Positions 8,915 through 23,262 of a DNA stretch of 64,000 nt are shown here, piece by piece. The translations under genes and the position numbers were made by a program. The first letter of the stretch is position 1. Every line of letters begins with the position of its first letter. The notes under the pieces are model-generated. The model ran no database searches and was not told the DNA's origin. It saw nothing but the letters and a program-made list of their open reading frames with translations. Source of the DNA: a virus. Lineage: Duplodnaviria > Caudoviricetes. The DNA lies in IMG/VR virus record IMGVR_UViG_3300029305_011953, positions 9,990-73,989 of that record; one strand, 5' to 3'.

Positions 8915-11028
8915 TTGTACCGTTTAGAGGATATGTAAAAACCAAGGATAAAAGCCCTTGTCAGAAGTTCGGAAACGGAGAGCCACTTTTGACATTGGAA
9001 GAAGTGGAAAATCTCGATGAATACGCAGGGATATTAAACGGTGAGTTTACGGTCAAAGACGTGGACGAAACTGGTGAGGCGGAAAGGGTTTATAGGTTCG
9101 TAACCGATATGAACTACAACTGCCGTGTATACAAAACGACCAGGGGTCTGCACTTTATGTTCAAAAGCAGTCCCTATTGCACGAAAGGCGTGGTTAAGGC
9201 TACCGATGCGCTCGGTTTTTCCTTCGACGTCCGCACGGGCAAGAATATGTACGTAGTCTTGAAAAGCAAGGGGAAAGTAAGAGAAATTATTCGAGATTTT
9301 GACGAGTCTCGACCGATTGACGAATTTCCTAAATGCCTTGCACCTGTCCGCAATGCCCAGAAGTTCACCGGTATGGGTGACGGTGATGGAAGAAACGGTG
9401 CATTGTTCAAGCATTCTGCTTTACTTTTGAAATGCGGATATACGCCTTCCGAGGTAAAGAGTATTCTGTATTTTATCAACAACTACGCATTCGACGAACG
9501 CCTCTCTGAAGAAGAGATGCAGAAGATAACCAGAAGAGAGGCATTAGAGAATTTCGTAGAGAGTAGCTCTGCGGCAGAAGACTTCGGTAACCCTCTTAAG
9601 CCGACTACGCAAAACGATATCGGTATGGCGGAATTGTTCGTGCAAGAATACCGAAATGAGGTGCGTTATAGCCCTGCAACGGGGTGGATTGTTTGGGATG
9701 GAACGAGATGGGAGCCTTCTGAACTGAAAGCGGAGCAGAAGTATATCGAGTTCGTGAAAAGAGCGCTGAAAGAGGCTCGAAAAGAGGTGCAGAACTCTTA
9801 TGGCACTCTTGGCGAAGTTGCTATGGGAGAGGGCGAAAAGAGTGCAAAAGAGGATGCGGAGAGAGCGATAAAAGAGGCGCTTGCTTATTTCAAATTCGTC
9901 AACAAGATGTGCGATAGCGGAAAAATAAAAGCCGTGATGAGCATTGCGAAGGGGTTTCTTGAAATAGGTGTTAGCGAATTGGACAGCAATCCGTTTGAAT
10001 TGAACACACCCTTTGGCATTGTGGATTTGAAAACGGGAGTAGTATATCCGCACCGTGCGGAGTCATATTGCACCAAAATAACCAAGGTGGCTGCGACGAT
10101 GGACGGTATGGATATGTGGCAAGAATGTCTTGACTTGGTTTCGCAGAACGACGAGGAGTTCAAGTCATATTTGCAAACCGCCGCCGGAGCGATTGCAATT
10201 GGTAAGGTCTATCAAGAGGCACTCATCATTGCCTTTGGGGACGGCGCAAACGGCAAAAGCACGGTTTTCAACACAATTTATGAAGTTTTAGGCGATTATG
10301 CGGGCAAAATCCCTGCGGAATCGCTGACTACGAAGGCGAGAAACACCAAAGTTGACCTTGCAGAACTGCTTGGAAAGCGGTTTGTCCTTGCAAGCGAAAC
10401 GGAAGAAGGTCAACGTCTTTCTACCAGTATGCTGAAACAGATTGCAAGCGTGGATACCATCACGGGCGAGAAAAAGTACCACGATCCGTTCACGTTCACA
10501 CCTACGCACACAACTGTGCTTTATACGAACCACCTGCCGAGAGTAGGTAGCAACGATAAAGGCACGTGGCGAAGACTGATAGTTGCACCGTTTAACGCAA
10601 ACATTAAGAACCCCAGAACCAACTATGGCGAAGAACTGCTGACGAAGGCAAGCGGTGCGGTTTTGAAGTGGATAATCGACGGCGCAAAGATGTTTATTGA
10701 CGGCGGGTTCAAGATACCGCATTGCAAAAAGGTGGACGATGCGATTGGCAAGTACCGTGAAGAGAACGATTGGCTTGCACATTTCCTTTCGGAGTGTTGC
10801 ATTGTCGGCGAAAAGGAGTCGGTCGGCGGGGGCGTGCTTTATAAGGCTTACCGCGCGTGGGCTACGGAAACGGGCGAGTATGTGCGCCGAAATAGGGATT
10901 TTGCGGATGCGTTGCGTGTCGCAGGTTTTGAAATGAAGAAAACAAGCAAAGAAAACGTATGGAAAGGGCTGACTTTGTCGGTTGACAGAGCATACGGTAC
11001 AACGGCAGAGGAGGATTTCCTGAAATAA
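8911..11028 (+). CDS. Phage primase-polymerase / D5-type SF3 helicase (P4 family)
   Basis: N-terminal prim-pol-like KTTRGLHF, D5_N-like NDIGMAELF and WIVWDGTRW, Walker A GDGANGKST, LASETEEG, HTTVLYTNHLP. Confidence 0.9.
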   Translation: MIVPFRGYVKTKDKSPCQKFGNGEPLLTLEEVENLDEYAGILNGEFTVKDVDETGEAERVYRFVTDMNYNCRVYKTTRGLHFMFKSSPYCTKGVVKATDALGFSFDVRTGKNMYVVLKSKGKVREIIRDFDESRPIDEFPKCLAPVRNAQKFTGMGDGDGRNGALFKHSALLLKCGYTPSEVKSILYFINNYAFDERLSEEEMQKITRREALENFVESSSAAEDFGNPLKPTTQNDIGMAELFVQEYRNEVRYSPATGWIVWDGTRWEPSELKAEQKYIEFVKRALKEARKEVQNSYGTLGEVAMGEGEKSAKEDAERAIKEALAYFKFVNKMCDSGKIKAVMSIAKGFLEIGVSELDSNPFELNTPFGIVDLKTGVVYPHRAESYCTKITKVAATMDGMDMWQECLDLVSQNDEEFKSYLQTAAGAIAIGKVYQEALIIAFGDGANGKSTVFNTIYEVLGDYAGKIPAESLTTKARNTKVDLAELLGKRFVLASETEEGQRLSTSMLKQIASVDTITGEKKYHDPFTFTPTHTTVLYTNHLPRVGSNDKGTWRRLIVAPFNANIKNPRTNYGEELLTKASGAVLKWIIDGAKMFIDGGFKIPHCKKVDDAIGKYREENDWLAHFLSECCIVGEKESVGGGVLYKAYRAWATETGEYVRRNRDFADALRVAGFEMKKTSKENVWKGLTLSVDRAYGTTAEEDFLK

Positions 11029-11033
11029 GGGTA

Positions 11034-11132
11034 GTGGAAGATAAATGGAGTATGAAACAGTAAATTTACTTAAAGAAATCAAAAAATTAAAAAATATAGA
11101 AATTTATGAATTTATACTCCATTATCCTCCAC
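11034..11132. repeat. Inverted repeat flanking an AT-rich core; putative phage replication origin
   Basis: GTGGAAGATAAATGGAGTAT (11034-11053) versus ATACTCCATTATCCTCCAC (11114-11132), with about 60 bp of AT-rich DNA between, directly after the primase gene. Confidence 0.55.
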
Positions 11133-11154
11133 AGCAATTCTCAAGGGTGGCTGT

Positions 11155-11436
11155 ATGGAAGAAAAGCGAATAGAAAGGAAACTTAAAAAGGCGGTCAAAA
11201 ATTGCGGAGGTATGTGCTTGAAATTCGTGTCCCCATCTTTTGATGGCGTTCCCGACAGGATTGTACTGCTACCGCAAGGACGCATTGCTTTTGTAGAAAC
11301 AAAGGCAACGGGAGAGGAAATGCGACCTCTCCAGAAATACAGAAAAAGGCAGTTGGAAAGACTCGGTTTTTTGGTTTTCTGCCTTGACAACGAAAACGAC
11401 ATAGGAGAGATTATCAATGAAATACGTACCGTATGA
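11155..11436 (+). CDS. VRR-NUC domain nuclease
   Basis: EKRIERKL, KFVSPSFDGVPDRIVL, FVETKA, RPLQKYR. Confidence 0.9.
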   Translation: MEEKRIERKLKKAVKNCGGMCLKFVSPSFDGVPDRIVLLPQGRIAFVETKATGEEMRPLQKYRKRQLERLGFLVFCLDNENDIGEIINEIRTV

Positions 11437-12763
11437 ATATCAGCAATACGCCACAAGGTTTATCGAAAAAAACGAGGTCGCAGCCATTTTCCTGGAATGC
11501 GGTCTTGGGAAGAGTGTGATAACCTTGACGGCAATCAAAAACTTAATAGCAAAGGGCGAAGTAAAAAAAGTGCTTGTCATTGCGCCTTTGCGTGTAGGGA
11601 AGACAACTTGGCCCGATGAAATTGAAAAGTGGGAACACCTGAAAGGCTTGACCTATTCGGTTGCAATCGGGACGGTAAAGGAAAGGGAGTCGGCGTTAAG
11701 AAAAAATGCAGATATCACGATCATTAACAGAGAAAACGTGGAATGGCTGATTGCGAAAAGCGGAGTTCCCTTTGACTACGATATGGTGGTTATAGACGAG
11801 CTTTCGTCCTTCAAATCCTATAAAGCAAAGCGTTTCAAATATCTTTTGAAAGCAAGACCTACGGTGGAAAGGATTGTCGGCTTGACGGGAACGCCTTCTT
11901 CCAACGGCTTGATGGATTTGTGGGCGCAGTTCCGATTGCTTGACCTTGGCGAAAGACTGGGGCGGTACATAACCAGATACCGTGAAGGCTACTTCACTCC
12001 CGATAAGCGGAATGCCCAAGTGGTATTTTCCTACAAACCCTTGCCTGGGGCGGAAGAGAAAATCTACGATAAAATCGGCGATATTACGATTTCGATGAAA
12101 GCAAAGGATTATTTGAAAATGCCAGACCTCGTGATGAATACCGTAAAGGTTAAAATGTCGGATAAAGATGGGGCAATTTACGAGCAGTTGAAGGATGATA
12201 TGTTCATCGATATTCGTGAAGAGGAAATCGACGTTGCAAATGCGGCGGCTCTGTCAAATAAACTTCAACAGTTGGCGAACGGTGCGATTTACGGCGTGGA
12301 CAAGAAGGTCATCCGTATCCACGACGGGAAGTTGGATGCTTTGGAGGATTTAATCGAGAGCGCCAACGGCAAACCAGTCCTTGTGGCGTATTGGTTCAAG
12401 CACGATTTGGAACGCATCAAGGAGCGTTTTCCTTTCGTTCGTGAAATCAAAACCCCCGACGATATAAAGGCTTGGAACAAGGGGGAAATCCTTGTGGGGA
12501 TTATTCATCCTGCATCCGCCGGACACGGCTTGAATTTACAACAGGGCGGTTCGACGATGATATGGTTTGGCTTAACGTGGAGCTTGGAACTTTATCAACA
12601 AACGATTGCAAGGTTGTACCGCCAAGGGCAAACGAAAACGGTTGTGGTACACCACATTGTAACCGAGGGGACGATTGACGAGTTGATGTTGGTTTCCCTT
12701 GACAGGAAAGAAAAAAGACAAGACGCATTGATTGATGCGGTAAAAGCACAGATAAGGAGGTAG
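11417..12763 (+). CDS. SNF2-family phage helicase
   Basis: FLECGLGKS, VIDELSSFK, LTGTPSSNG, HPASAGHGLNLQ, ARLYRQGQ. Confidence 0.92.
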   Translation: MKYVPYEYQQYATRFIEKNEVAAIFLECGLGKSVITLTAIKNLIAKGEVKKVLVIAPLRVGKTTWPDEIEKWEHLKGLTYSVAIGTVKERESALRKNADITIINRENVEWLIAKSGVPFDYDMVVIDELSSFKSYKAKRFKYLLKARPTVERIVGLTGTPSSNGLMDLWAQFRLLDLGERLGRYITRYREGYFTPDKRNAQVVFSYKPLPGAEEKIYDKIGDITISMKAKDYLKMPDLVMNTVKVKMSDKDGAIYEQLKDDMFIDIREEEIDVANAAALSNKLQQLANGAIYGVDKKVIRIHDGKLDALEDLIESANGKPVLVAYWFKHDLERIKERFPFVREIKTPDDIKAWNKGEILVGIIHPASAGHGLNLQQGGSTMIWFGLTWSLELYQQTIARLYRQGQTKTVVVHHIVTEGTIDELMLVSLDRKEKRQDALIDAVKAQIRR

Positions 12764-12766
12764 CGT

Positions 12767-12985
12767 ATGAAATCAGCAGAGTGGCAAGAAAACCTGGCAC
12801 ACGCCATTATATTGCAAGCGGTGAGGGATTACCGTGATGTGCGAAAAATCTTACGCAAGTATCCCGAACACGACTTGTCTTTGAAATTAAAAGCAGAAGT
12901 GGAGGAGTTCTTCCTTTCGAGTTGGTTCACGGTTTTAACGAACCTTGATGGGAAGGCACTCTTAAAAAAATTACAGGAGGAGTGA
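12767..12985 (+). CDS. Small conserved phage hypothetical protein
   Basis: RBS AGGAGG; ENLAHAIILQAVRDYR motif common in this gene position. Confidence 0.7.
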   Translation: MKSAEWQENLAHAIILQAVRDYRDVRKILRKYPEHDLSLKLKAEVEEFFLSSWFTVLTNLDGKALLKKLQEE

Positions 12986-12989
12986 GAAT

Positions 12990-13403
12990 ATGACAAAGAA
13001 GGAATATCTGAACCAAGCGTATTATTTGGATAAGCAAATCAAACGGGATTTGTTGCAATTGGAAAACTTAAAAAGCATAGCCGATTCCATTCCTTCGCCG
13101 TGCTTTGGGGAAAAGGTAAAGAGTACGAGAAACTTCGACCCGCCGTTCGTGAGAACGTTAGAAAAGATATGGCAAAAGGAGGAAGAAATCAACGTGGAGA
13201 TTGCAAAGCTACTGGATTTGAAGGACGAGATTCGTGCGGTCATTAATACGCTTGCAAATCAAGACGAGAGATTGGTTTTGGACTACCGCTACCTGCTTTT
13301 CCATAAGTTGGAGGAGATAGCGGCGGAAATGAACGTGAGTATGTCGAGCGTTAAGCGTTGGCACCAGAACGGAATAAAAAATTTGACGATTCCTAAAAGT
13401 TGA
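12990..13403 (+). CDS. RinA/ArpU-like (DUF1492) late transcriptional activator
   Basis: MTKKEYLNQAY N-terminus and C-terminal HTH (RLVLDYRYLLFHKLEEIAAEMNVSMSSVKRWHQNGI); last early gene before packaging. Confidence 0.82.
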   Translation: MTKKEYLNQAYYLDKQIKRDLLQLENLKSIADSIPSPCFGEKVKSTRNFDPPFVRTLEKIWQKEEEINVEIAKLLDLKDEIRAVINTLANQDERLVLDYRYLLFHKLEEIAAEMNVSMSSVKRWHQNGIKNLTIPKS

Positions 13404-13476
13404 ACCCTTTTGAGCCTTTTTTATCCAAATTGAGCCGAAATGAGCCTTGATGAGCCGTTGCCATTTGTGGTATGAT
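13401..13476 (+). promoter_or_regulatory. Late promoter with helically phased TGAGCC repeats
   Basis: TGAACC at 13401 and TGAGCC at 13411, 13431, 13441, 13451; extended -10 TGGTATGAT at 13468-13476. Confidence 0.65.
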
Positions 13477-13497
13477 ATACTTGTGAAAATATAACGT

Positions 13498-13528
13498 AAG
13501 CCTTTGAGAAATCAAGGGCTTATTTTTA
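13498..13528 (+). terminator. Hairpin/attenuator just downstream of the late promoter
   Basis: AAGCCTTTGA-GAAA-TCAAGGGCTT followed by ATTTTTAT. Confidence 0.5.
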
Positions 13529-13541
13529 TGGGGAAATAATT

Positions 13542-13922
13542 ATGCCAAGAAAACCGAAGAAACCGTGTGCGTTTCCTGGTTGTCCTAAATTAACTGACGG
13601 AAGATACTGTGAAGAGCATACCAAGGTGATGAACGACAGGTACAATAAATATGAACGCCCCTACGATTCTTCGGAAAGGTATGGAAGTCTGTGGCGGAAG
13701 ATAAGAAACCGCTACATCAAAAAGCATCCTTACTGTGAGGAGTGCTTGAAGAACAGAAAGCTGACGAAGGCAGAAGAAGTTCATCACATTCTTCCGTTGA
13801 ACCATGGAGGAACACACGCAGAAAATAATTTGATGTCTCTGTGCAAGCCATGTCACTCACGCATCACAGCATTGATGGGAGACCGCTGGGGCAAGCCAAC
13901 AGAGGATGGGTCTAAAAAGTAG
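13542..13922 (+). CDS. Terminase-associated HNH endonuclease
   Basis: MPRKPKKPCAFPGCP, HPYCEEC, EVHHILPL, HAENNLMSLCKPCHSRI; directly upstream of terS. Confidence 0.92.
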   Translation: MPRKPKKPCAFPGCPKLTDGRYCEEHTKVMNDRYNKYERPYDSSERYGSLWRKIRNRYIKKHPYCEECLKNRKLTKAEEVHHILPLNHGGTHAENNLMSLCKPCHSRITALMGDRWGKPTEDGSKK

Positions 13923-13969
13923 GCGCAACCTCCCGCGAGGATGGGTCTATTTTTTTTACGCAACCTCCC
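13902..13969 (+). repeat. Tandem 33-bp imperfect direct repeat GAGGATGGGTCTA-N9-CGCAACCTCCC
   Basis: Copies at 13902-13934 and 13937-13969; a third related copy lies at 45655-45683. Confidence 0.8.
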
Positions 13970-13974
13970 TTGGG

Positions 13975-14050
13975 GGCATCGGGGGTAGGGGAGGTCAAAT
14001 CTCTGGCTCTCCCTGCCGAACAGCGGGCGCGGGCTTTCGTGTGCAAAAAT
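13975..14050. other. Candidate cos/packaging site
   Basis: GC-rich GGGGAGGTCAAATCTCT...AGCGGGCGCGGGCTTTCGTGTGCAAAA between HNH and terS, the usual cos position in HNH/HK97-type phages. Confidence 0.5.
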
Positions 14051-14101
14051 TGCTTTTCAAACGTGGTATTAACCCCACCCCTAAAATGAAGGAGGAAAAC
14101 T

Positions 14102-14638
14102 GTGGCAAAAGACGGAACAATGCGAGGTGGCGCTCGTATCGGTGCAGGCAAGAAACCAAAGGCTCTGCACGAAAAAATCGCCGAGGGAAAAGACGATGGT
14201 GCAATGGTGCTGCCGAACCCTATTGATTTGGACGGAGTTGACGTTCCGCCCGTGAAAGAATATTTGAAAGCCACCCAGAAAAACGGAAAGGCGATGTGCG
14301 CCGAGGAAGTGTACAAGGAAATCTATCTGTGGCTGAAACAAAGACGGTGTGAAAAGCTCGTCAGCAAGCAACTCATCGAGCAGTACGCAATGAGCGTTTC
14401 TCGTTGGGTGCAATGTGAAGAAGCGATTTCCGAATATGGTTTCCTTGCGAAACACCCCACGACAGGGAACGCAATCGCAAGTCCGTATGTGGCGATGAGC
14501 CAACAGTATATGAAGCAGTCGAACCAAATCTGGTATCAAATCTTCCAGGTAGTAAAAGAGAACTGCTCGGTGGATTATGGTGGCAGTCCGCACGACGATA
14601 TGATGGAAAAATTACTCGCATCAAGGCGAGGAAAATAA
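14102..14638 (+). CDS. Terminase small subunit (P27 family)
   Basis: MAKDGTMRGGARIGAGKKPK, LIEQYAMSVSRWVQCEE, KHPTTGNAIASPYV; RBS GAAGGAGG. Confidence 0.88.
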   Translation: MAKDGTMRGGARIGAGKKPKALHEKIAEGKDDGAMVLPNPIDLDGVDVPPVKEYLKATQKNGKAMCAEEVYKEIYLWLKQRRCEKLVSKQLIEQYAMSVSRWVQCEEAISEYGFLAKHPTTGNAIASPYVAMSQQYMKQSNQIWYQIFQVVKENCSVDYGGSPHDDMMEKLLASRRGK

Positions 14639-14654
14639 AGGAGAGATACGAAAA

Positions 14655-15689
14655 ATGAGACTTTTTTCTACGGAACAAGTCAGCAAGTATCATCCCGATA
14701 AATATGCAGACCAAATTTCGGATGCGATTTTGACGGCTTGCTTGCGCCAAGACAAAGACAGCCATTGTGGAATTGAAACGATGGTCAAGGACAACACGGT
14801 CGTTCTCGGTGGCGAGATTACGACCAAGGCAAAAATCGACGTTGAGCAGATTGTAAAGCAAGTTGCTGCCAAGCTCGGCTATACGGTGGATAAGGTTATA
14901 AACCTTATCGGTCAGCAATCGCCGCAAATCAATAACGCGGTATCCTCGGTGGAAGAAATCGGTGCGGGAGACCAAGGCACGATGTTTGGGTATGCTACAG
15001 CAGAAACATCAAGCAGACTTCCGTTTGGTTTTGACCTTGCGAATAAAATCATCAAGGCGATTGAAACGGACGTGGAGACGAACCCCGATACGATTTTTAA
15101 GGGCGATGCAAAAACGCAGGTAGTCGTTGACCTTGACAAAGAGCCGACCTTTGAATCGGTAAAAAGTATCCTCGTTTCGGCTTGCCATAAAGAGGGAATT
15201 GCTCTTGATGTCGTAAAATGCCGAATTAGGGCGTTAATTGCCGAAATTTGGGACGATACCGAACTCCCCGAACTGATTATCAATCCGTCGGGAGCGTGGA
15301 CAATTGGCGGTGCTACGGCGGATTGCGGTTTGACGGGTAGAAAGATTGTTTGCGACCAATACGGTGGCTACTGTGCTGTCGGCGGCGGTGCTTTCTCTGG
15401 CAAAGACCCGACGAAGGTTGACCGTTCGGCGAGTTATATTGCGAGAAAAATTGCTGTTGACTTGCTCGAAGCGTATGACCTTAAGTGGTGCGAAGTACAG
15501 CTTGGTTATGCAATCGGCATCGCAGAACCCATTTCCGTTTGCGTAAAAAACGACAAAGGGTTTGACCTTTCCGACGAAGTAAGAAAATATTATTCGTTGA
15601 CCCCTCGTGGAATTATCGAAGAACTCGGTCTTTTAGAAAAGGACTACGAGAAGATTGCGGAAGGGTGTCATTATAGGGAAAAATTCTAA
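14655..15689 (+). CDS. metK: Phage-encoded S-adenosylmethionine synthetase (compact, divergent)
   Basis: HPDKYADQISDAI, GAGDQG, GDAKTQV, GLTGRKI, GGGAFSGKDPTKVDRS. Confidence 0.92.
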   Translation: MRLFSTEQVSKYHPDKYADQISDAILTACLRQDKDSHCGIETMVKDNTVVLGGEITTKAKIDVEQIVKQVAAKLGYTVDKVINLIGQQSPQINNAVSSVEEIGAGDQGTMFGYATAETSSRLPFGFDLANKIIKAIETDVETNPDTIFKGDAKTQVVVDLDKEPTFESVKSILVSACHKEGIALDVVKCRIRALIAEIWDDTELPELIINPSGAWTIGGATADCGLTGRKIVCDQYGGYCAVGGGAFSGKDPTKVDRSASYIARKIAVDLLEAYDLKWCEVQLGYAIGIAEPISVCVKNDKGFDLSDEVRKYYSLTPRGIIEELGLLEKDYEKIAEGCHYREKF

Positions 15690-15717
15690 ATTTTCCTAAA
15701 AATTTTATTAAAAACGT

Positions 15718-15746
15718 TTGACAAGATAAAAAAATGTGGATATAAT
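15718..15746 (+). promoter_or_regulatory. Perfect-consensus sigma-A promoter of the nucleotidyltransferase moron
   Basis: TTGACA (15718-15723)-17 bp-TATAAT (15741-15746). Confidence 0.9.
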
Positions 15747-15806
15747 ACTATGATTTAGTGCAGAAAGTGCTAAATGGGTGGCTTGGGAAACAAGGAGTTT
15801 TGTATT

Positions 15807-16457
15807 ATGTACCACTATATCGAAGACAAAGAATTTTTGAAGAGAATGCGTAGCCTGTGCGCCGACATTATTAACCAGTTGGTTCAAAAAATCAACAGGG
15901 AAGGAAAAATGACGGTTGAAGCTCACCTTGTTGGTAGCGGGGCGAGAAATATGGAAACGCAAAATGCCAATCAACCCGTTGACCTTGACTATAACCTTTG
16001 GGTCTATAAGTGCGATGATATAAATGATTGTCGTGCAATCAAAGAATACGTGAGAAAAACTTTCAATAAGGTGTTGAAAGCAAATGGTTGGTCTGACTGC
16101 GAGGATTCAACTTCTTCCTTAACGACGGAAAGAAGACACTTCACGAAAGGAAATCAAACGGAATTTAGTATCGACCTTGCTATTGTTGCAGAAGGGCGCA
16201 CAGACAACTGGTATCGACTTATCCATAAGAAGACGGGATATGTGCAGAGGGATGAATATTGGTGGCAAGAAGCACCACATTCCGATGGGCTGCGAGATAA
16301 GGTTGACGATTTAAAAGACAATGATTTGTGGCTTGAGGTTCGTCAAACCTATCTCGACAAGAAAAATATGTATTTGAGAAGGCAGGATAAAAACCATCCT
16401 TCTTTCAACGTGTACATAGAATCGGTAAATGAAGTTTACTATAAGCATTTTAGATAA
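15807..16457 (+). CDS. Stand-alone Pol-beta-superfamily nucleotidyltransferase (cGAS/DncV-like, SMODS-like)
   Basis: hGS-x13-DhD motif (HLVGSGARNMETQNANQPVDLDY) plus third acidic strand FSIDLAIV; RBS AAGGAG 9 nt before ATG 15807. Confidence 0.75.
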   Translation: MYHYIEDKEFLKRMRSLCADIINQLVQKINREGKMTVEAHLVGSGARNMETQNANQPVDLDYNLWVYKCDDINDCRAIKEYVRKTFNKVLKANGWSDCEDSTSSLTTERRHFTKGNQTEFSIDLAIVAEGRTDNWYRLIHKKTGYVQRDEYWWQEAPHSDGLRDKVDDLKDNDLWLEVRQTYLDKKNMYLRRQDKNHPSFNVYIESVNEVYYKHFR

Positions 16458-16474
16458 AAATAAATAATTGACGG

Positions 16475-16503
16475 AACCGTCCTGTAAAAGGGGCGGTTTT
16501 TTC
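16475..16503 (+). terminator. Intrinsic terminator closing the nucleotidyltransferase moron
   Basis: AACCGTCCT-GTAAA-AGGGGCGGTT followed by a T run. Confidence 0.75.
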
Positions 16504-16522
16504 ATGCCAAAAAGGAGGAATA

Positions 16523-17800
16523 ATGGCGAGAACAACGACAGAAATGCAACTGATCGAACTCTCGAAATTGGTCCCGTATGTCAATAACGCACGAACGCAC
16601 TCGGTGGAGCAGATAAACAAACTTCGGTCGAGTCTTCGTGAGTTTGGTTTTATTAACCCAGTCATTATTGACAAGGACTACGGCATCATCGCGGGACACG
16701 GTCGTGTGATTGCAGCGAGAGAAGAAGGTATTGAAAAAGTGCCTTGCGTGTTGGTGGATTATCTCACGGAGGCACAGAAGAAAGCGTACATTTTGGCTGA
16801 CAACCGTATGGCTTTGGATGCAGGATGGGATGAAGAACTTCTGCGTGTGGAAATCGAGGCTTTGCAAGGCGAGAACTTTGACGTTGGTTTGACGGGTTTT
16901 GATGAAAAGGAACTTGCAGACCTCTTCAAAGGGGAAGATAAGGAAATCGAAGATGACGATTTTGACTTAACCGCCGCCCTTGAAAAAGCATCGTTTGTAC
17001 AAAGGGGCGATGTTTGGACGGTGGGACGGCATAGGCTCGTGTGCGGTGATGCGACCAATGCCGACGACGTGAAAACCTTAATGGACGGCAAACGCGCCAA
17101 CCTCATTCTGACAGATCCGCCGTATGGCGTTTCCTTTAAGAGTAAGAGTGGCTTGACTATCCAAAACGACAGTATGAAGGACGATGAGTTCTATCAATTC
17201 TTATATAAAGCCTTCGTGAATATGGCGGAAAATTTAGAGCCAGGCGGTTCTGCTTATGTTTTCCACGCCGACACCGAAGGCTTAAAGTTTAGAAAGGCGT
17301 TTATTGATGCAGGTTTCCACCTTGCCGGTGTTTGCATTTGGGCGAAGAATAGCCTTGTCCTTGGCAGGTCGGATTATCAATGGCAACACGAACCCGTTTT
17401 ATACGGCTTTTTGCAGAACGGCAAGCATAAGTGGTATTCGGATAGAAAGCAGACGACCATTTGGAACTTTAACAAGCCTAAACGCAATGAAAATCATCCC
17501 ACGAGTAAGCCACTTGACTTGCTCGGCTATGCGTTGAAGAACTCTTCGCAGGAAAATGCTATTGTTGTGGATACGTTCGGCGGAAGTGGTTCTACGCTTA
17601 TGGCGTGCGAGGGGATGAATCGTATCTGCTATACCATTGAACTTGACGAAAAGTACGCATCCGTTATTCTTCGTCGATATGTCGAGGATACTGGCAATGC
17701 AGATGGAGTCTTCGTGGTGCGAGATGGTAAGCAAATCCCGTATGCCGACCTTGTAAAAGAAGTGCAAGGCAGAAACAGCAATGCGGATAGCGATAATTGA
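16523..17800 (+). CDS. ParB-N-terminal domain fused to an N4/N6 DNA methyltransferase
   Basis: LVPYVNNARTH and IIAGHGRV (ParB-like); LTDPPYG, HPTSKPLDL and VDTFGGSGST (beta-class amino-methyltransferase). Confidence 0.92.
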   Translation: MARTTTEMQLIELSKLVPYVNNARTHSVEQINKLRSSLREFGFINPVIIDKDYGIIAGHGRVIAAREEGIEKVPCVLVDYLTEAQKKAYILADNRMALDAGWDEELLRVEIEALQGENFDVGLTGFDEKELADLFKGEDKEIEDDDFDLTAALEKASFVQRGDVWTVGRHRLVCGDATNADDVKTLMDGKRANLILTDPPYGVSFKSKSGLTIQNDSMKDDEFYQFLYKAFVNMAENLEPGGSAYVFHADTEGLKFRKAFIDAGFHLAGVCIWAKNSLVLGRSDYQWQHEPVLYGFLQNGKHKWYSDRKQTTIWNFNKPKRNENHPTSKPLDLLGYALKNSSQENAIVVDTFGGSGSTLMACEGMNRICYTIELDEKYASVILRRYVEDTGNADGVFVVRDGKQIPYADLVKEVQGRNSNADSDN

Positions 17801-18872
17801 TGCGGATTTAATCGGTCGTAAAAAACATAGGTTTCCAAATTTGGCGTGTATGAAGATATCCGCTTTTCATAAAAATCAAGGGGACAGCGTAGAACTAAAA
17901 ACAGATTACAACGGTTTATCGGAGTACGACAAAATATATCTGTCAAAGGTATTCACGGACACGGTAGTCCCTAACGAGGTTTTAAGTTTGGAAAATCTTT
18001 CATTCGGCGGGACGGGTTTCTTTTATGATAAAGCACCTCCCTTGCCGGAGGAAGTGGAACATCAAAAGCCAGATTATCACTTGTATGATGCTTGGGTTGA
18101 TGAACAACTTCGTGCCGGTGGTAAAGAGCGCGATTTTTCCTATTACCGTGATTATTCGATAGGTTTCTTAACGAGAGGCTGTTTCCGCAAATGCGAGTTC
18201 TGCGTGAATAGAAATTATAAGCGGGTATTAAAGCACAGCCCCATAGAAGAATTCCTGGATGAAACACGACCGAAAATATGCTTGCTCGACGATAATTTCC
18301 TTGGGTATCCTTGTTGGAAAGAAATGTTGCTTGAATTACAAAGCAGAGGAAAGCCATTCCAGTTCAAACAAGGGTTGGATGAAAGGCTTTTGACCGATGA
18401 GTCGTGTTCCATTTTATTCTGTAGTAAATACGACGGCGATTATATTTTTGCATTCGATAACGTGGCGGACAAGGAAATCATCGAAAGAAAGATTAAACTT
18501 GCACGGAAGTACACGACCGCCGCCTTGAAATTTTATTGTTTCTGCGGTTTCGATCGTGAAGGAAAATGGGATGACGGTTTTTGGCGAGAAGATATTTTTG
18601 ACCTTTTCAAAAGAATAGAAATTCTCGCTTGTTATGGCTGCGTTCCATACGTGATGAGGTACGCTCGATATGTGGAAAGTCCGTATCGAGGGTTGTATAT
18701 TACGATTGCACGGTGGTGCAATCAACCGAATTTTTTCAAAAAGAAAAGTTTGCGTGAATTTGCGGAAGCGAATGGGCGAACAAGTGCTTGTTACAGGTAT
18801 ATGCGTGACTTCGAGAATGCTTTCCCAGAAGTCGCTTTTTATTTGGATATGAAATATTGTCCGTCCAAGTAA
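17781..18872 (+). CDS. Radical SAM protein
   Basis: CxxxCxxC in TRGCFRKCEFC; N-terminal IIDAD...FPNLACMKISAFHKNQGDSV; LLDDNFLG. Confidence 0.8.
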   Translation: MRIAIIDADLIGRKKHRFPNLACMKISAFHKNQGDSVELKTDYNGLSEYDKIYLSKVFTDTVVPNEVLSLENLSFGGTGFFYDKAPPLPEEVEHQKPDYHLYDAWVDEQLRAGGKERDFSYYRDYSIGFLTRGCFRKCEFCVNRNYKRVLKHSPIEEFLDETRPKICLLDDNFLGYPCWKEMLLELQSRGKPFQFKQGLDERLLTDESCSILFCSKYDGDYIFAFDNVADKEIIERKIKLARKYTTAALKFYCFCGFDREGKWDDGFWREDIFDLFKRIEILACYGCVPYVMRYARYVESPYRGLYITIARWCNQPNFFKKKSLREFAEANGRTSACYRYMRDFENAFPEVAFYLDMKYCPSK

Positions 18873-18919
18873 CGGGTTCATATAATTACGAAAGATAAAA
18901 ATTAAAGGATTTACGAAAG

Positions 18920-20926
18920 ATGAATAAAAAACTGACGTTGGGCAGTCTGTTCGACGGGTCGGGTGGATTCCCGTTAGGCGGTCTGCTTGCAGATATTTCT
19001 CCTTTGTGGGCATCCGAGGTCGAGCCTTTTGCTATAAGGGTTACGACCAAGCGGATGCCTTTTGTCAAACATTACGGCGATATTTCCCAAATGGACGGCG
19101 GGAAAATCGAACCCGTGGATATAATCACGTTTGGTAGCCCCTGTCAAGATATGAGCGTTGCGGGAAAGCGTAGCGGTCTTGACGGGAGTCGTTCGTGCTT
19201 GTTTTACGAAGCTGTCCGAATTATTAAAGAAATGAGGAGTGCAACGAATGGAAAATATCCAAGATATGTCGTTTGGGAAAATGTCCCAGGCGCATTCTCA
19301 AGCAACGGAGGCAAAGACTTCAAAGCGGTGCTTGACTCGCTCGTCAGCATCGTCGAAGAGACAGCCGAAGTGCCTTTTCCTGAAAAAGGGGAATGGGCAT
19401 ACGCCGACTGCTACATGGGAGACGGATGGAGCCTTGCTTACCGAGTTCTCGACGCTCAATATTGGGGAGTCCCCCAACGACGTCGTAGAATCTACCTTGT
19501 CGCAGATTTTGGAGGTAGGAGTGCCTGCGATGTATTATTTAAGTCCGAAGGCTTGTCAAGGTATTCTGCGGAGGGCTTCCGTGCGTGGCAAAGAACTGCC
19601 AATCATACTCAAGAACGCTTTGGAACGCCAGGCGTTGGGTTCGATGGATACAACGGAAGCGTAGACGAAAAGGCAGCAACGCTCGGTGTGAATTGCGGAA
19701 TGTCCACAGGCAGGAACGGAGTTGTCCTTAACGACCAAGGCGGAAACAGAATGGACGTAACGGAAGAAGTTACTTGCACCTTAAGAGCGCAAGCACATCA
19801 TCCGCCTGTGGTTATGGATGTCTTTGACAACCACGGAAAGGATGTCCGCTATACGGGGCCTATTGAAATTGCGCCTACGATTTCTGCAACCTATGGAACG
19901 GGAGGGAACAATCAACCGTTTGTCGTGGGTAAGAGTTGGGATGGCAGAGAAGTTTCGCCGACCTTAACCAAGCAAAATGCAGGTGGCAATCAACGAATGC
20001 CCGACAAGGACAATTTTAACTGCGTTCTTCAACCTTACGGTATTTCCGCAAAGGATAGTAATGCAATGAAATCAAGCAATCCCCATAGCGGTATTTACGC
20101 AGCAAAGACATCTCGAACTCTTGACGGCAATGGCGGAAATCCCGCTTGTAATCAAGGTGGTATCGCTGTGGTATGCGTCGACCAAGGTGGCGGAAAGTCC
20201 GCTTGCAACGTGACGGTTGAGAAAACACCAACACTCACTTGCACGCACGGGGGCGAGCCTGCGGTTTGCGTAGAAACTCCCAAAGAAGGTAAAGACCCTG
20301 TATATGCGATGACAACGGGAAGTTATCAACAGGTGGAAGAAGGGCGTTCGCCGACATTAATGGCAAGGGACTACAAAGACCCGAACGCTGTTTGTTACGG
20401 AATAGGCAGAGACACCTTTAACCAAGGAAAGAATGCCAAGTTCTCGCCGACCTTTGAAAAGGAACTTCAACCCACGATGGTCGCAAAGGGGCCTGGGGCA
20501 ATTGCGTATGGGTTCGACCAATGTGCGGACAGGGATGTTGGGGCGTTATTCCTTGAAGAGAAATCAAAAACGCTCACGAACGGCACTTGTCCTGGCTATC
20601 ACAACAGCGTATGCAAAACAGATTATACGGTACGAAGATTAACCCCCGTTGAATGCGCAAGATTGCAGGGTTTCCCCGATTGGTGGTGTCAAAACCTTGA
20701 AACGGAAAAACCGACGGACGAGGATGTATATTATTGGTATAAGGTTTTCGAGACGTATCGTAAACTGACTGGCGAAGGAAAGCCGAAGACCGATAAGCAA
20801 ATCCGCAAGTGGTTGAACTCGCCGCATTCCGATTCCGCAGAGTATAAACTTTGGGGGAACGGCGTGGCTTTACCGTGCGTATTTTTTGTACTTTCGGGCA
20901 TTGAATATTACGCAAAAAAATCTTAA
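18920..20926 (+). CDS. C5-cytosine DNA methyltransferase with a long modular variable region
   Basis: Motif I LFDGSGG, IV FGSPCQD, VI ENVPG, VIII QRRRRI, IX RRLTPVECARLQGFP, X YKLWGNGV. Confidence 0.95.
   Translation: MNKKLTLGSLFDGSGGFPLGGLLADISPLWASEVEPFAIRVTTKRMPFVKHYGDISQMDGGKIEPVDIITFGSPCQDMSVAGKRSGLDGSRSCLFYEAVRIIKEMRSATNGKYPRYVVWENVPGAFSSNGGKDFKAVLDSLVSIVEETAEVPFPEKGEWAYADCYMGDGWSLAYRVLDAQYWGVPQRRRRIYLVADFGGRSACDVLFKSEGLSRYSAEGFRAWQRTANHTQERFGTPGVGFDGYNGSVDEKAATLGVNCGMSTGRNGVVLNDQGGNRMDVTEEVTCTLRAQAHHPPVVMDVFDNHGKDVRYTGPIEIAPTISATYGTGGNNQPFVVGKSWDGREVSPTLTKQNAGGNQRMPDKDNFNCVLQPYGISAKDSNAMKSSNPHSGIYAAKTSRTLDGNGGNPACNQGGIAVVCVDQGGGKSACNVTVEKTPTLTCTHGGEPAVCVETPKEGKDPVYAMTTGSYQQVEEGRSPTLMARDYKDPNAVCYGIGRDTFNQGKNAKFSPTFEKELQPTMVAKGPGAIAYGFDQCADRDVGALFLEEKSKTLTNGTCPGYHNSVCKTDYTVRRLTPVECARLQGFPDWWCQNLETEKPTDEDVYYWYKVFETYRKLTGEGKPKTDKQIRKWLNSPHSDSAEYKLWGNGVALPCVFFVLSGIEYYAKKS
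19248..19664 (+). CDS. Overprinted +1-frame ORF inside the C5 methylase (M.EcoHK31I beta-polypeptide-like)
   Basis: GAGGAG (19234-19239) 8 nt before ATG 19248; 138 codons without a stop; contains STLSQILE...YYLSPKACQGILRRASVRGKELPIILKNALERQA. Confidence 0.65.
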   Translation: MENIQDMSFGKMSQAHSQATEAKTSKRCLTRSSASSKRQPKCLFLKKGNGHTPTATWETDGALLTEFSTLNIGESPNDVVESTLSQILEVGVPAMYYLSPKACQGILRRASVRGKELPIILKNALERQALGSMDTTEA

Positions 20927-20932
20927 AAAAGT

Positions 20933-21030
20933 GTATCAAAATTAAATAAAAAATTATCAAATTATCGCCCAAATTCGCTGGATATAATTCCGTTTTAGAG
21001 GTAATATACCCATACAAAAATCAAAGGAGG
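20933..21030 (+). promoter_or_regulatory. Conserved moron promoter/leader, copy 1 of 3
   Basis: GTATCAAA...ATCGCCCAAATTCGCTGGATA...TTTTAGAGGTAATATAC.CATAC followed by an RBS; near-identical at 22335-22430, core repeated at 42748-42805. Confidence 0.75.
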
Positions 21031-21040
21031 GCGATTGCCT

Positions 21041-21952
21041 ATGAAGATTCATTTCAATATAAGCAGACAGAGCGAAAGAGAACGCTTTGTCGAAGAAATA
21101 ACCAGATGGCTTGGTTATGAGAGAGAAGTAACGGAAGACGGTTTTCTCGTTATTGGTAAGGTTCAAATCGACAAAGAAAACAACCTTATTATTGCCGACG
21201 AGATGGAAGACGAAACGGTGGAGCGTTTACTTCAATTTTTGTACGACGAGGGGTTCGAGAGCGATTTGAGTTATAAATTCGACGATGAACCCCAAGCGGA
21301 CGAAAGTAACGAAGACCCCACCTACGCATTTGAGGATTTCAACTTTGAAGATGTTGATATTACGAAGAATGCAGCCGTGGAAAGAAAGCCTTATGAAAAA
21401 AAGCAAAAGGCAAAAGAAACGGAGGAGCCTACCCAGCCCAAGGCGGTCATAGAACCACCGCAAGAAATAGGATATAGCCTTCCGCCGATCAAAAATGAAA
21501 GCGAGTTTACGAAAAACGAAATAAATCGCAGAAAGGTCTGTGAGTTAAGTGTAACGGAAGCGATATTGCTTGACCTTCGGAACAGGTATAAGGAGGGGAC
21601 GAGAGTGGAGCTTATCAAAATGGACGATAAGCAAGCACCTCCCCTTAAAACGCACGGAACGGTTCGGCACGTAGACGACATAGGAACGATTCATGTTTCT
21701 TGGGACAGCGGTTCATCGCTTGGGGTGGTTTTTGGCGAGGATGATTGCAGACCCCTTGTGACGATGAACGACAGAATTAAAGAACAGATTTTGAAAATCC
21801 GTGCGACGGGTATTACAAATATGTTCGACACCAAGTATGTTCAATGGCTTGCCAACTTCTGCGGATATTTTGAATTGGTTTGTTTTATCGAGGATAATGT
21901 CAGCGATTACGTGAAGTTTATTTGCGAAGGGAGGGTTGGAGATTATGCTTGA
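21041..21952 (+). CDS. Fusion protein: N-terminal phage domain + DUF4314 + DUF5049-like
   Basis: YKEGTRVELIKMDD..APP..GTV.HVDDIGTIHVSWDSGSSL (DUF4314-like) then IKEQILKIRATGITNMFD (DUF5049-like). Confidence 0.75.
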   Translation: MKIHFNISRQSERERFVEEITRWLGYEREVTEDGFLVIGKVQIDKENNLIIADEMEDETVERLLQFLYDEGFESDLSYKFDDEPQADESNEDPTYAFEDFNFEDVDITKNAAVERKPYEKKQKAKETEEPTQPKAVIEPPQEIGYSLPPIKNESEFTKNEINRRKVCELSVTEAILLDLRNRYKEGTRVELIKMDDKQAPPLKTHGTVRHVDDIGTIHVSWDSGSSLGVVFGEDDCRPLVTMNDRIKEQILKIRATGITNMFDTKYVQWLANFCGYFELVCFIEDNVSDYVKFICEGRVGDYA

Positions 21953-22238
21953 GTGGATTACGGTAAAGCTGATGCCCAAGGCTGATGTCATAATTTATCC
22001 CAACGGACGATTTTACTTCACGGGACACGCACAAAAACGGTTAGAATTATATAAAAGTCATTGGCAAATTGTGGAAGATGTGCAAAAGAAACGGCTTGCT
22101 ATGCTTTTCGCTGAATCGGGAAGAGATGCGAGCTTTGGATATACCTGTATTCCGTGCGTTGTAGCAAGGGATTACTTGGGGAAATTTAGATTGCTCCCTC
22201 TGGGGGACAAAGGCTATATTTTAGAGCCGATCGAGTAA
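21945..22238 (+). CDS. Hypothetical protein (moron)
   Basis: Overlaps the previous stop with an RBS; no recognised motif. Confidence 0.55.
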   Translation: MLEWITVKLMPKADVIIYPNGRFYFTGHAQKRLELYKSHWQIVEDVQKKRLAMLFAESGRDASFGYTCIPCVVARDYLGKFRLLPLGDKGYILEPIE

Positions 22239-22334
22239 AAAACGCTTACAGATAGCGGATTCCCAACCGCTAAAACCCCTTTATGGAACAGGGCTGAAAG
22301 GCTCTGTTCCTCGTTATGAAAAAGCGTGATTTTT

Positions 22335-22430
22335 GTATCAAAATTAAATAAATTAATTATCGAATTATCGCCCAAAATCGCTGGATATATATTCGTTTTA
22401 GAGGTAATATACACATACAAAAAACGAAGG
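22335..22430 (+). promoter_or_regulatory. Conserved moron promoter/leader, copy 2 of 3
   Basis: Near-identical to 20933-21030. Confidence 0.75.
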
Positions 22431-22441
22431 AGCGAACAGCT

Positions 22442-22765
22442 ATGAAAAGAAAAATCAAAGTAACAATGGTAAGCAAAGCGGCAAGCGTTATGGATTACAA
22501 CGCACGAGTTGCAAGGGGCGAAGGTACGCAGGTTGAGGTGGTTATCGAAAAGACCATTCGCCTTTCCTTCACGAACTACACGATTTTCGGGGCGAGATTG
22601 CTTGACGAACAGAACTTCATCAGAAACAACCAAGACCTTATGAAAGTGGACGAAGACGGCGTTTGGCACGTAATCAGGGTTACTTGCAAGGACTCGAACC
22701 TTTCGATTTTGGTAAATGCGGAAGGCTACGATTACGCAAGATACTCGGCAACGATTAGAAAGTAA
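22442..22765 (+). CDS. DUF6329-like hypothetical protein
   Basis: LLDEQNFIRNN.DLM.VDEDGVWH..RV....SILVNAEGYDYARYSA pattern. Confidence 0.7.
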   Translation: MKRKIKVTMVSKAASVMDYNARVARGEGTQVEVVIEKTIRLSFTNYTIFGARLLDEQNFIRNNQDLMKVDEDGVWHVIRVTCKDSNLSILVNAEGYDYARYSATIRK

Positions 22766-22776
22766 GGGGGTAGGCT

Positions 22777-23262
22777 ATGAACAGAGAAGAATTGATTACC
22801 TTTATGCTTGGGACAGGCGAATATTCCACGGTCAAGGAAGCGGACAGAGCCATTATGAATAAAATGGCGGAGTTGAAAAGGTCGGGGATGAGCCAAAAGA
22901 ACGCTTGGGAAAGTATGGTTGAATTTATGGAGCTGACCCTTACGCCAAAGACGGATTTGTTTGAAACGAGAGAGCAAGCAATGCAAGGCTGCCTTGCGGA
23001 GAGCGATGTTTGCGCTCGGTTTTCCGAAAAGGCAATAGAACTTTTCCGCCAAGGGAAAATCAAGGAAGGGTTTGAGTGGTACGAGCTTGCGAAAACGGCA
23101 AGCGTATGTGCAATGCAAGCGCACGAAGCCTTGTGGAAAATGGCAAAAGGTGAGTTGACCGAAGACGAGCAGAGAGCCTTTGAAACGGTAGAAAATGCGG
23201 TCGGGAAACTTTTCACGGCAAGGTTCGTTTTGAAAGAAGAATCGAAAAAGGTAGGGTTTTGA
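22777..23262 (+). CDS. Hypothetical helical protein (moron)
   Basis: RBS AAGGGGGT, operonic; no motif recognised. Confidence 0.65.
   Translation: MNREELITFMLGTGEYSTVKEADRAIMNKMAELKRSGMSQKNAWESMVEFMELTLTPKTDLFETREQAMQGCLAESDVCARFSEKAIELFRQGKIKEGFEWYELAKTASVCAMQAHEALWKMAKGELTEDEQRAFETVENAVGKLFTARFVLKEESKKVGF

Follow-up and report, generated by a model that had tools for sequence, protein, structure and literature searches.

A mobile single-gene cassette in a gut Clostridia phage encodes a predicted minimal cGAS/DncV-like nucleotidyltransferase behind a conserved structured leader

What does a lone gene for a cGAS/DncV-like nucleotidyltransferase (CD-NTase) do in the middle of a phage operon? 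The question is raised by a stretch of 64,000 nucleotides from a virus of the Caudoviricetes (Duplodnaviria), positions 9,990 to 73,989 of the IMG/VR provirus record IMGVR_UViG_3300029305_011953 (73,989 bases), which is called the window here and to which all positions refer. Between the genes for an S-AdoMet synthetase (MetK) and a ParB-methylase it carries a cassette of 841 nt (15680-16520) with a single gene, encoding a nucleotidyltransferase (NTase) of 216 amino acids (P0001). The cassette is a discrete insertion, its protein is predicted to have the CD-NTase fold and keeps a conserved catalytic set, and its sole constant companion throughout the family is a structured, cis-acting leader RNA; a conserved partner gene is absent. 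The structured leader, the large size of the family and a sibling phage that is free of the cassette are new with respect to the preliminary description of the window, which had been made from the sequence alone.

The inserted cassette

The carrier, a temperate phage whose host is a gut bacterium of the Clostridia, has the cassette inside its metK-methylase operon. The same phage was found in a metagenome-assembled genome (MAG) of the Eubacteriales (L015), where the NTase protein is 100% identical. The cassette, all of it on the plus strand, comprises a promoter, a leader, the NTase gene, a terminator and a new ribosome-binding site (RBS) for the methylase. The promoter is a consensus of the sigma-70/sigma-A type, TTGACA-17-TATAAT (15718-15746), with 12 of 12 matching positions, and was the sole 12/12 site that a signal scan found within 14000-18000. 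At or beside the predicted 5' end of the mRNA follows a hairpin, P1 (15753-15775), which has 9 pairs and the loop AGAAA in the window copy, and then a G-rich single-stranded tail of conserved columns (15775-15787; consensus UGG-R-Y-GG-Y-W-UGGG). The RBS AAGGAG (15792-15797), read directly and kept in the alignment of homologues, lies 9 nt 5' of the ATG, and translation places the NTase gene at 15807-16457. Downstream of the gene, a hairpin followed by a T-run resembles an intrinsic terminator (16469-16504; -18.4 kcal/mol, z -3.2); it was overlooked by a simple terminator scan and recovered by folding. Promoter, RBS, 216-aa open reading frame (ORF) and terminator were thus all read in the sequence between metK and the methylase, as the preliminary description had stated. 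The terminator is not a constant component of the family cassette: a hairpin with T-run passed a crude test in 23 of 82 distinct downstream regions of homologues.

Four RNA-library runs (X15-X18) were compared with window positions 11000-23000 at the contig level. A contig of 8,915 nt from X15 tracked the window over 11000-15679 and 16521-19479 at ~98.6% identity, with 108 differences in 7.6 kb, and skipped the 841 nt of 15680-16520, in place of which it had 7 other letters. Read across this joint, metK ends 6 codons later (...HYREAI) and its stop overlaps the start of the methylase gene (TAATG), indicating a tight ancestral operon with translational coupling of metK to the ParB-methylase in its original state. 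In a second study, a contig (X18) matched metK perfectly up to 15679 and then diverged, giving the same left boundary. The GC content of the cassette was 38.2%, as compared to 47% in metK and the methylase. From the empty-site contig and the lower GC content, 15680-16520 is a discrete insert, a moron in the strict sense, and the earlier claim of a self-contained insert was borne out by the sibling contig. Since, in addition, promoter and leader precede the NTase in 78 of 90 homologue loci, the association of these parts goes beyond chance. MAG contigs often ended upstream of the NTase, 180-370 nt from the start of the match (L016, L037, L053, L055, L056, L063 and L085), a pattern that points to differences between strains or to a repeat at the left junction of the cassette.

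Expression in the silent lysogen had been predicted from the perfect promoter. X17 is a metatranscriptome of the bovine gut. Three of its contigs, which differ from the window at 0, 0 and 2 positions, covered only 15767-16290, beginning within the leader and ending two thirds into the NTase gene; of the flanking phage genes nothing was covered but short stretches, divergent in sequence, that belong to conserved motifs of metK and methylase genes. This pattern would fit, weakly, a transcript with its start located between the -10 box and 15767, the phage itself being silent. X15 covered the whole phage evenly and is therefore no evidence for selective expression. The promoter and the contigs restricted to leader and NTase thus agree with the prediction, but these contigs prove neither transcription nor a silent prophage.

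Predicted fold and conserved catalytic residues

The AlphaFold2 model of the NTase (predicted local distance difference test score 82.5, predicted template modelling score 0.79) consists of a 25-residue N-terminal helix, a mixed sheet that carries the GS motif, the DLD motif and D123, and a C-terminal lobe (C-lobe) of just three helices after the sheet (162-171, 175-191 and 199-215). Foldseek against the PDB returned CD-NTases at all top ranks (DwCdnB, CdnE and CdnC; E 1e-5). In a VIA search, which is independent of Foldseek, CdnB (7ljo) was the best match with a Z of 11.4 and a root-mean-square deviation (rmsd) of 3.0 over 129 residues, followed by CdnD, CdnE, CdnG, a cGAS-like receptor (cGLR) and OAS2, and at later ranks, with Z of 7-9, by terminal uridylyltransferases (TUTases), poly(A) polymerases, TENT2 and FAM46C. 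A second look with VIA gave DncV (Z 12.1, rmsd 5.3, 181 residues) and cGAS (Z 12.0, 190 residues). As modelled, the fold is cGAS/DncV-like, with CD-NTases as the closest structural class, and the architecture that had been proposed from the sequence is supported by both searches.

Residues 1-216 of the model map onto residues 152-433 of mouse cGAS and 21-316 of DncV, and the targets of the structural alignment are 272-375 aa long, compared to 216 aa here. The model spans the spine helix, the catalytic core and the first helices of the C-lobe, so that the rest of the cGAS fold, about the last third of a usual CD-NTase, is predicted to be absent. The protein, noted before as smaller than typical, is in fact smaller than any solved CD-NTase and does not have the full-size C-lobe found in proteins of ~270-450 aa. 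A PADLOC model for cyclases of antiphage systems that signal through cyclic oligonucleotides (CBASS; PDLC00795) aligned with residues 13-172 at profile positions 25-174 of 340 (E 7e-8). Weak matches to PADLOC CBASS cyclase models recurred in 12 of 45 relatives as well as in distant branches and were the sole family-profile matches. Sequence searches of the PDB, run with P0001 alone and with a profile of 45 members, yielded chance matches only. The ESM Atlas returned unnamed clusters, the nearest named one being SMODS/NTP_transf_2 (score 0.86), a lead only, and the single match in the viral fold library BFVD, an uncharacterised giant-virus protein (E 2e-5), was uninformative.

Conservation was counted in 45 diverse relatives with 29-73% identity. 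G43 and S44, the GS motif of the Pol-beta fold (codons at 15933-15938), were found in 45 and 40 of them, with Thr in place of S44 in 3 more; D59 and D61 of the metal-binding DxD motif D59-L60-D61 (15981-15989) were found in 40 and 44, and D123, the third catalytic Asp (16173-16175), which lies within SIDLAI and in the beta strand 118-129 of the model, in 40. The intact catalytic set named in the preliminary description is thus conserved in 89-100% of the relatives; its spacing needed a trivial correction, there being 14 and not 13 residues between S44 and D59. A motif of the type GSxxxNxxT follows the first strand. The catalytic triad is under clear selection and, judged by these residues, the enzyme looks catalytically competent. 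In the C-lobe, K186, N187, S199, E205 and N208 were nearly invariant (KKN...HPSF...Y.E..N). In cGAS, OAS and poly(A) polymerase enzymes, a Lys on a helix and a downstream Ser-aromatic pair bind the triphosphate and the base of the donor nucleotide, and KKN...HPSF is suitably placed for what we take to be the equivalent Lys and Ser-aromatic pair. The N-terminal M-Y was nearly invariant as well (Tyr2 in 39 of 45, Phe in 5), in a part of the model that forms a low-confidence flexible tip.

An open, shortened C-lobe would also be in keeping with a target-directed NTase, which adds nucleotides to the 3' end of tRNA or another RNA, to a protein side chain, to itself as a primer or to a small molecule, for instance an antibiotic. 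The continuation of the fold list to TUTases, poly(A) polymerases, TENT2 and FAM46C points in this direction, as do the family's median isoelectric point of 8.7 and the nearly invariant Tyr2, despite its place in the flexible tip; a parallel is HalB, which, according to a review (PMC13434031), primes oligo-dA synthesis on a tyrosine of its own. Moreover, in one distant branch a PIN_7 nuclease domain, described as NYN-like (PMC5499597), is fused to the NTase (P0238) or follows it (L106), at L104:482-1537 and L106:408-1495, the two PIN_7 parts being 53-58% identical by tblastn, and would link the family to RNA. Nevertheless, we consider a target-directed enzyme rather unlikely: the best fold matches are dinucleotide and oligonucleotide cyclases, and MenT/AbiEii and kanamycin NTases, with which a comparison had been proposed, as well as lincosamide NTases were absent among the 50 matches shown for each search, although a MenT/AbiEii-like match may stand at a lower rank. 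NCBIfam, which includes models of resistance enzymes, gave no match, and no antitoxin-like neighbour was conserved in 100 homologue loci.

The family, its leader RNA and its neighbourhoods

A word-indexed search found 1,831 clusters of relatives at 90% identity, and an exhaustive search found 674 representatives at 50% identity, 384 of them at E <1e-10 and 91 at E <1e-30. Nearly all relatives have 215-230 aa, and in every source all of them are named "hypothetical protein" at most; in the literature on minimal, orphan or stand-alone CD-NTases, no paper was found that describes this family. According to record titles, the hosts are Clostridia of gut and rumen (Lachnospiraceae, Oscillospiraceae, Acutalibacteraceae and Ruminococcus) and, further, Acholeplasmatales, Anaeroplasma, other Mollicutes, Erysipelotrichaceae and a Melainabacteria MAG. 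The distribution is sporadic, with the family present in 11 of 400 Clostridia species genomes of an even sample. A tblastn search of 72,556 plasmids gave no family match, and one of 50,697 phage records gave two metagenomic records only, with 42% and 28% identity. The copy of Metamycoplasma faucium UMCG-MFM1 (L071:8001-8651) is intact, uses TGA for Trp at five conserved Trp positions and is flanked by housekeeping genes (dUTPase, a P30-like protein, metK and secA) in a genome of 807 kb. Codon use and setting thus indicate that the NTase is resident and read in this minimal genome. Since M. faucium is in culture, the gene would be open to study there; L050, L063 and L067 likewise come from isolates.

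Alignment of the 130 nt upstream of each homologue revealed a shared layout of TTGACA-17-TAtAaT, AAYGA, a hairpin of 6-9 bp, UGG-R-Y-GG-Y-W-UGGG, a Shine-Dalgarno (SD) sequence and the ATG. Nearly all homologue loci had this -35/-10 pair, with an unchanged distance to the ATG, followed by a leader of ~55 nt, and the stem sequence of the hairpin varied between lineages. In 71 aligned leaders, the 7 consensus pairs of P1 were 93% paired, compared to 26-41% with slid partners, and 102 double-change cells were counted; none of 500 shuffles reached the observed covariation. RNAalifold recovered the same P1 helix, which is also part of the minimum-energy fold of the window copy. The G-rich tail forms the best-conserved columns of the leader (71-85 loci) and is noncoding, since an internal ATG is in frame in the window and out of frame in L001; no covarying pairing partner for it was found. 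A G-quadruplex or a T-box-like UGGN/NCCA pairing would be conceivable for the tail. The folding energies of single leaders were not unusual (z -0.6 to -2.6). A second helix, a pseudoknot or an SD-burying pairing with covariation was not found in the aligned leaders, and RNAalifold on the leader plus 45 nt of coding sequence returned P1 only, with no helix that buries the SD sequence. A GGUGG/CCACU helix in the fold of the window copy was rejected because leaders with GGRCGG in the tail, or with the codons UAU-CAU, do not keep it. With Rfam 15, a permissive scan over 15600-16600 gave only chance-level matches, none of them on the plus-strand leader.

A covariance model of the leader (R1) had 78 matches in 1.06 Mb of 90 homologue loci, all directly upstream of the NTase start, and one match in the whole provirus record. 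In five whole carrier genomes it found the expected copy in each and two weaker matches. These precede genes of a sister family of NTases (L113:853-1503, minus strand; L114:1571-2197, plus strand), which have 209-217 aa, are 30% identical to P0001 (E 6e-20), share the same motifs and are without a Pfam match; both genomes carry one gene per family. The presence of the leader in front of a sister family with 30% identity indicates that promoter, leader and gene have been kept together over deep divergence. The hairpin may be a 5' stabiliser, but the conservation of the G-rich tail calls for a specific reader, be it a ligand, a protein or the ribosome.

Binding of structured RNA is known from OAS, cGLRs and some CdnE enzymes. 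Could P0001, then, be mainly an RNA-binding or regulatory protein in which catalysis is secondary or lost, and which binds its own leader in an autoregulatory manner or another hairpin RNA? Hairpin and G-rich tail are kept with the gene down to 30% protein identity, which is a closer tie than a generic expression signal needs. However, the selection on the catalytic triad argues against it, no RNA-binding domain is detectable in P0001, and the leader may just as well act as a 5' stabiliser or sense a ligand, and we regard such a role as very improbable.

For the neighbourhoods, ORFs were called and clustered in 103 homologue loci, and the NTase cluster was present in 100 of these. The commonest other cluster was found in 13 of the 100 loci. 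In none of them did a Cap effector or regulator adjoin the NTase, and in the window the neighbours are MetK and the ParB-methylase; the absence of an adjacent Cap effector, noted earlier for the window, therefore extends to the family. Recurring sites were the gap between large terminase and portal, with the terminase directly upstream in 7 loci, conjugative-element genes (Replic_Relax, DUF5688 and BspA-LRR; 6 loci), and the chromosomal sites 3' of rplM-rpsI, 3' of guaA and next to spoVAD. Other copies were found in a gap between tail and recombinase genes, in an integrase/relaxase element and at the edge of a Druantia-like DruA/AAA_14 island (P0089) behind a 66-aa helix-turn-helix gene (HTH_3), which was seen 5' of the NTase solely in that island. 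Some copies are chromosomal islets without mobile-element genes nearby. Domains of type I restriction-modification (HSDR_N and T1R_D3), Eco57I and DruA were found among neighbours or in accidental fusions. Proteins of more than 414 aa were limited to five singleton fusions (HSDR_N, recombinase, peptidase M24 and Eco57I); these were rejected as real architectures and read as gene-call or frameshift artefacts of adjoining genes.

In four Ruminococcus loci located 3' of rplM-rpsI (L080, L085, L086 and L091, e.g. L091:8651-9352), the stop of the NTase gene overlaps the start of a gene for a 233-aa Zn-ribbon membrane protein with a weak match to DUF4153. This pair could be a lineage-specific two-gene form resembling systems of an NTase and a membrane effector. 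Together with the PIN_7 branch, it provides effector-like partners in minor lineages and, like the fold and the weak hidden Markov model (HMM) matches to CBASS cyclases, would be compatible with a CBASS-type cyclase in trans, which would supply a cyclic nucleotide to an effector whose gene lies at another place of the host genome. We judge this improbable. The NTase moves alone among unrelated hosts (Clostridia, Mollicutes, Erysipelotrichaceae and the Melainabacteria MAG), which makes a fixed distant partner implausible, and it persists in the 807-kb mycoplasma genome. Furthermore, a search of the five carrier genomes for a SMODS-type cyclase gave 0 matches; a SAVED search of the same genomes gave no match either, with a control that was likewise silent, and was hence uninformative.

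In the window, the genes around the cassette were assigned with Pfam. An HNH endonuclease (13542) and the small terminase (terS, 14102) precede MetK, which has all three S-AdoMet synthetase domains (14655-15689). The ParB-methylase is a protein with ParB_N and N6_N4_Mtase domains, an N6/N4 DNA methylase (16523-17800), and is followed by a 363-aa protein (17781-18872), a C5 methylase (18920), a 305-aa protein (21035-21952; domains DUF4314 and DUF5049) lying in the interval from the methylase block to the large terminase, the large terminase itself (terL, 24043) and the portal (25691). The gene for the 363-aa protein, located between both methylases, starts 20 nt before the end of the ParB-methylase gene; it had been labelled radical SAM before, and Pfam gave 0 matches at E 0.001. 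Over 19400-19800, RNA contigs of several studies pile up on the motif region of the C5 methylase, with a depth of 36 in X15 and odd contig joints at 19515/20060, 19516/19682 and 19600/19733, most likely derived from methylases of other organisms and not a feature of the phage.

Located from terS to terL, MetK and the two DNA methylases that surround the cassette form a typical anti-restriction cluster, and many copies of the family are on phages and conjugative or integrative elements. Both observations would suit a counter-defence function, in which the NTase of a phage or of an integrative and conjugative or mobilisable element blunts host immunity by a competing or antagonist nucleotide, by inactivating nucleotidylation of an immune signal or sensor, or by repair of damaged RNA ends. 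But the cassette has its own constitutive-type promoter instead of a position in an early operon, islets next to rpsI, guaA, spoVAD and mycoplasma housekeeping genes would have no obvious use for such a function, and the family is nearly absent from the plasmid and phage records mentioned above. In the five carrier genomes there is, moreover, no SMODS-type cyclase to antagonise, and the idea of a decoy for host CBASS, put forward in the preliminary description, is without support for the same reason. On balance, counter-defence is an explanation that we hold to be fairly unlikely.

Possible function and relation to known systems

We tentatively propose that the NTase is an active, autonomous synthase of a nucleotide product that serves as defence-type cargo. 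The cassette would be transcribed alone, independent of the phage programme, with its output tuned by the leader; the minimal NTase would condense nucleoside triphosphates into a small nucleotide or oligonucleotide, and it would serve whichever element carries the cassette in conflicts with others. With no dedicated Cap effector at hand, the product would need a target that all hosts share, or would have to hit the invader itself. The sporadic spread, the neighbourhoods (Druantia-like island, restriction-modification genes, prophage ends and integration hot spots) and the bare islets lean towards defence cargo.

Several points weigh against this proposal. To our knowledge, every characterised CD-NTase works with a linked effector, and an effector-free form is without precedent. 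Pfam gave no NTase family for P0001 at E up to 10, SMODS (PF18144) and NTP_transf_2 included; NCBIfam gave 0 families at the same threshold, and PHROGs gave no match. In 5 of the 45 relatives one catalytic residue is missing, and the open cleft left by the truncated C-lobe would, according to the model, equally suit a macromolecular substrate. The anti-restriction-type surroundings in this phage, with MetK and two Pfam-confirmed DNA methylases, suit counter-defence, and the X17 contigs, being no proof of transcription, could equally stem from DNA carry-over or from the cassette in another context.

A more far-reaching version, which we put forward as a quite doubtful speculation, is that leader and enzyme together would make up a complete immune or conflict module without an effector. 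The leader, riboswitch-like or bound by a protein, would gate translation on a nucleotide, either the enzyme's own product or a cue of infection, and the product would act via housekeeping nucleotide signalling, for example the cyclic di-AMP network of Bacillota and Mollicutes. If so, a Cap effector would be unnecessary.

CD-NTases are the bacterial ancestors of cGAS, and here hundreds of clusters keep the predicted catalytic heart of these enzymes in ~215 residues, with the effector shed and the gene mobile among phages, elements and chromosomes. To know the product and the beneficiary would reveal either that cGAS-like chemistry has a new use, be it defence without an effector, counter-defence or interference with host signalling, or that there is a new class of NTases directed at a target; it would also define the smallest functional CD-NTase scaffold and add a new cis-regulatory RNA. 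The pair of empty and occupied phages and the cultured carriers make the function directly testable.

Compared to the CD-NTases of CBASS (CdnB, CdnC, CdnD, CdnE, CdnG and DncV) and to cGAS and cGLRs, P0001 has the same predicted fold and the same GS/DxD/D set. These enzymes usually have 270-380 aa, whereas P0001 has 216 aa and about one third of the C-terminal helical lobe is absent; CBASS cyclases are linked to an effector, whereas the cassette consists of a single gene that brings along a constitutive-type promoter and a structured leader dedicated to it. Since it has neither a full C-lobe nor a match to curated family HMMs nor a linked effector, P0001 is best placed with the CD-NTases by predicted fold and chemistry, but outside CBASS. 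NTase modules of the toxin-antitoxin type (MenT/MenA, AbiEii/AbiEi and MNT/HEPN) have an adjacent partner, unlike this family with no conserved neighbour, and from antibiotic NTases (ANT, Lnu) P0001 is set apart in that it matches neither an NCBIfam resistance model nor Pfam NTP_transf_2 at E up to 10.

Miniature, constitutive nucleotide-polymerising enzymes are known from Panoptes, whose mCpol is a Cas10 Palm domain (PMC12657218, PMC12657230), and from minimal diadenylate cyclases, which have a DAC domain (PMC13640721); Hailong HalB, with an adjacent membrane effector, is a further one as described in the review (PMC13434031). In all three, an adjacent membrane effector is held in check, whereas the P0001 family has no conserved partner, and they belong to other folds or families, HalB not being seen among the fold matches of P0001. 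The "always on, small, mobile" logic of such guard-signal synthases may be shared by P0001, as a resemblance of logic only.

The leader is, like small translational riboswitches and the 5' stabiliser stem-loops of Firmicutes, a short covarying hairpin with a single strand upstream of the SD sequence; it differs from them in having no Rfam match and no covarying SD-sequestering helix or pseudoknot. The cassette as a whole resembles phage morons, which are self-contained units of promoter, gene and terminator inserted into late operons of temperate phages, as it has its own promoter and terminator, lies between co-oriented genes, is lower in GC content and is absent from a sibling phage. Unlike morons, however, cassettes of this family are also found on integrative and conjugative elements and at bare chromosomal sites, with promoter and leader conserved across hosts.

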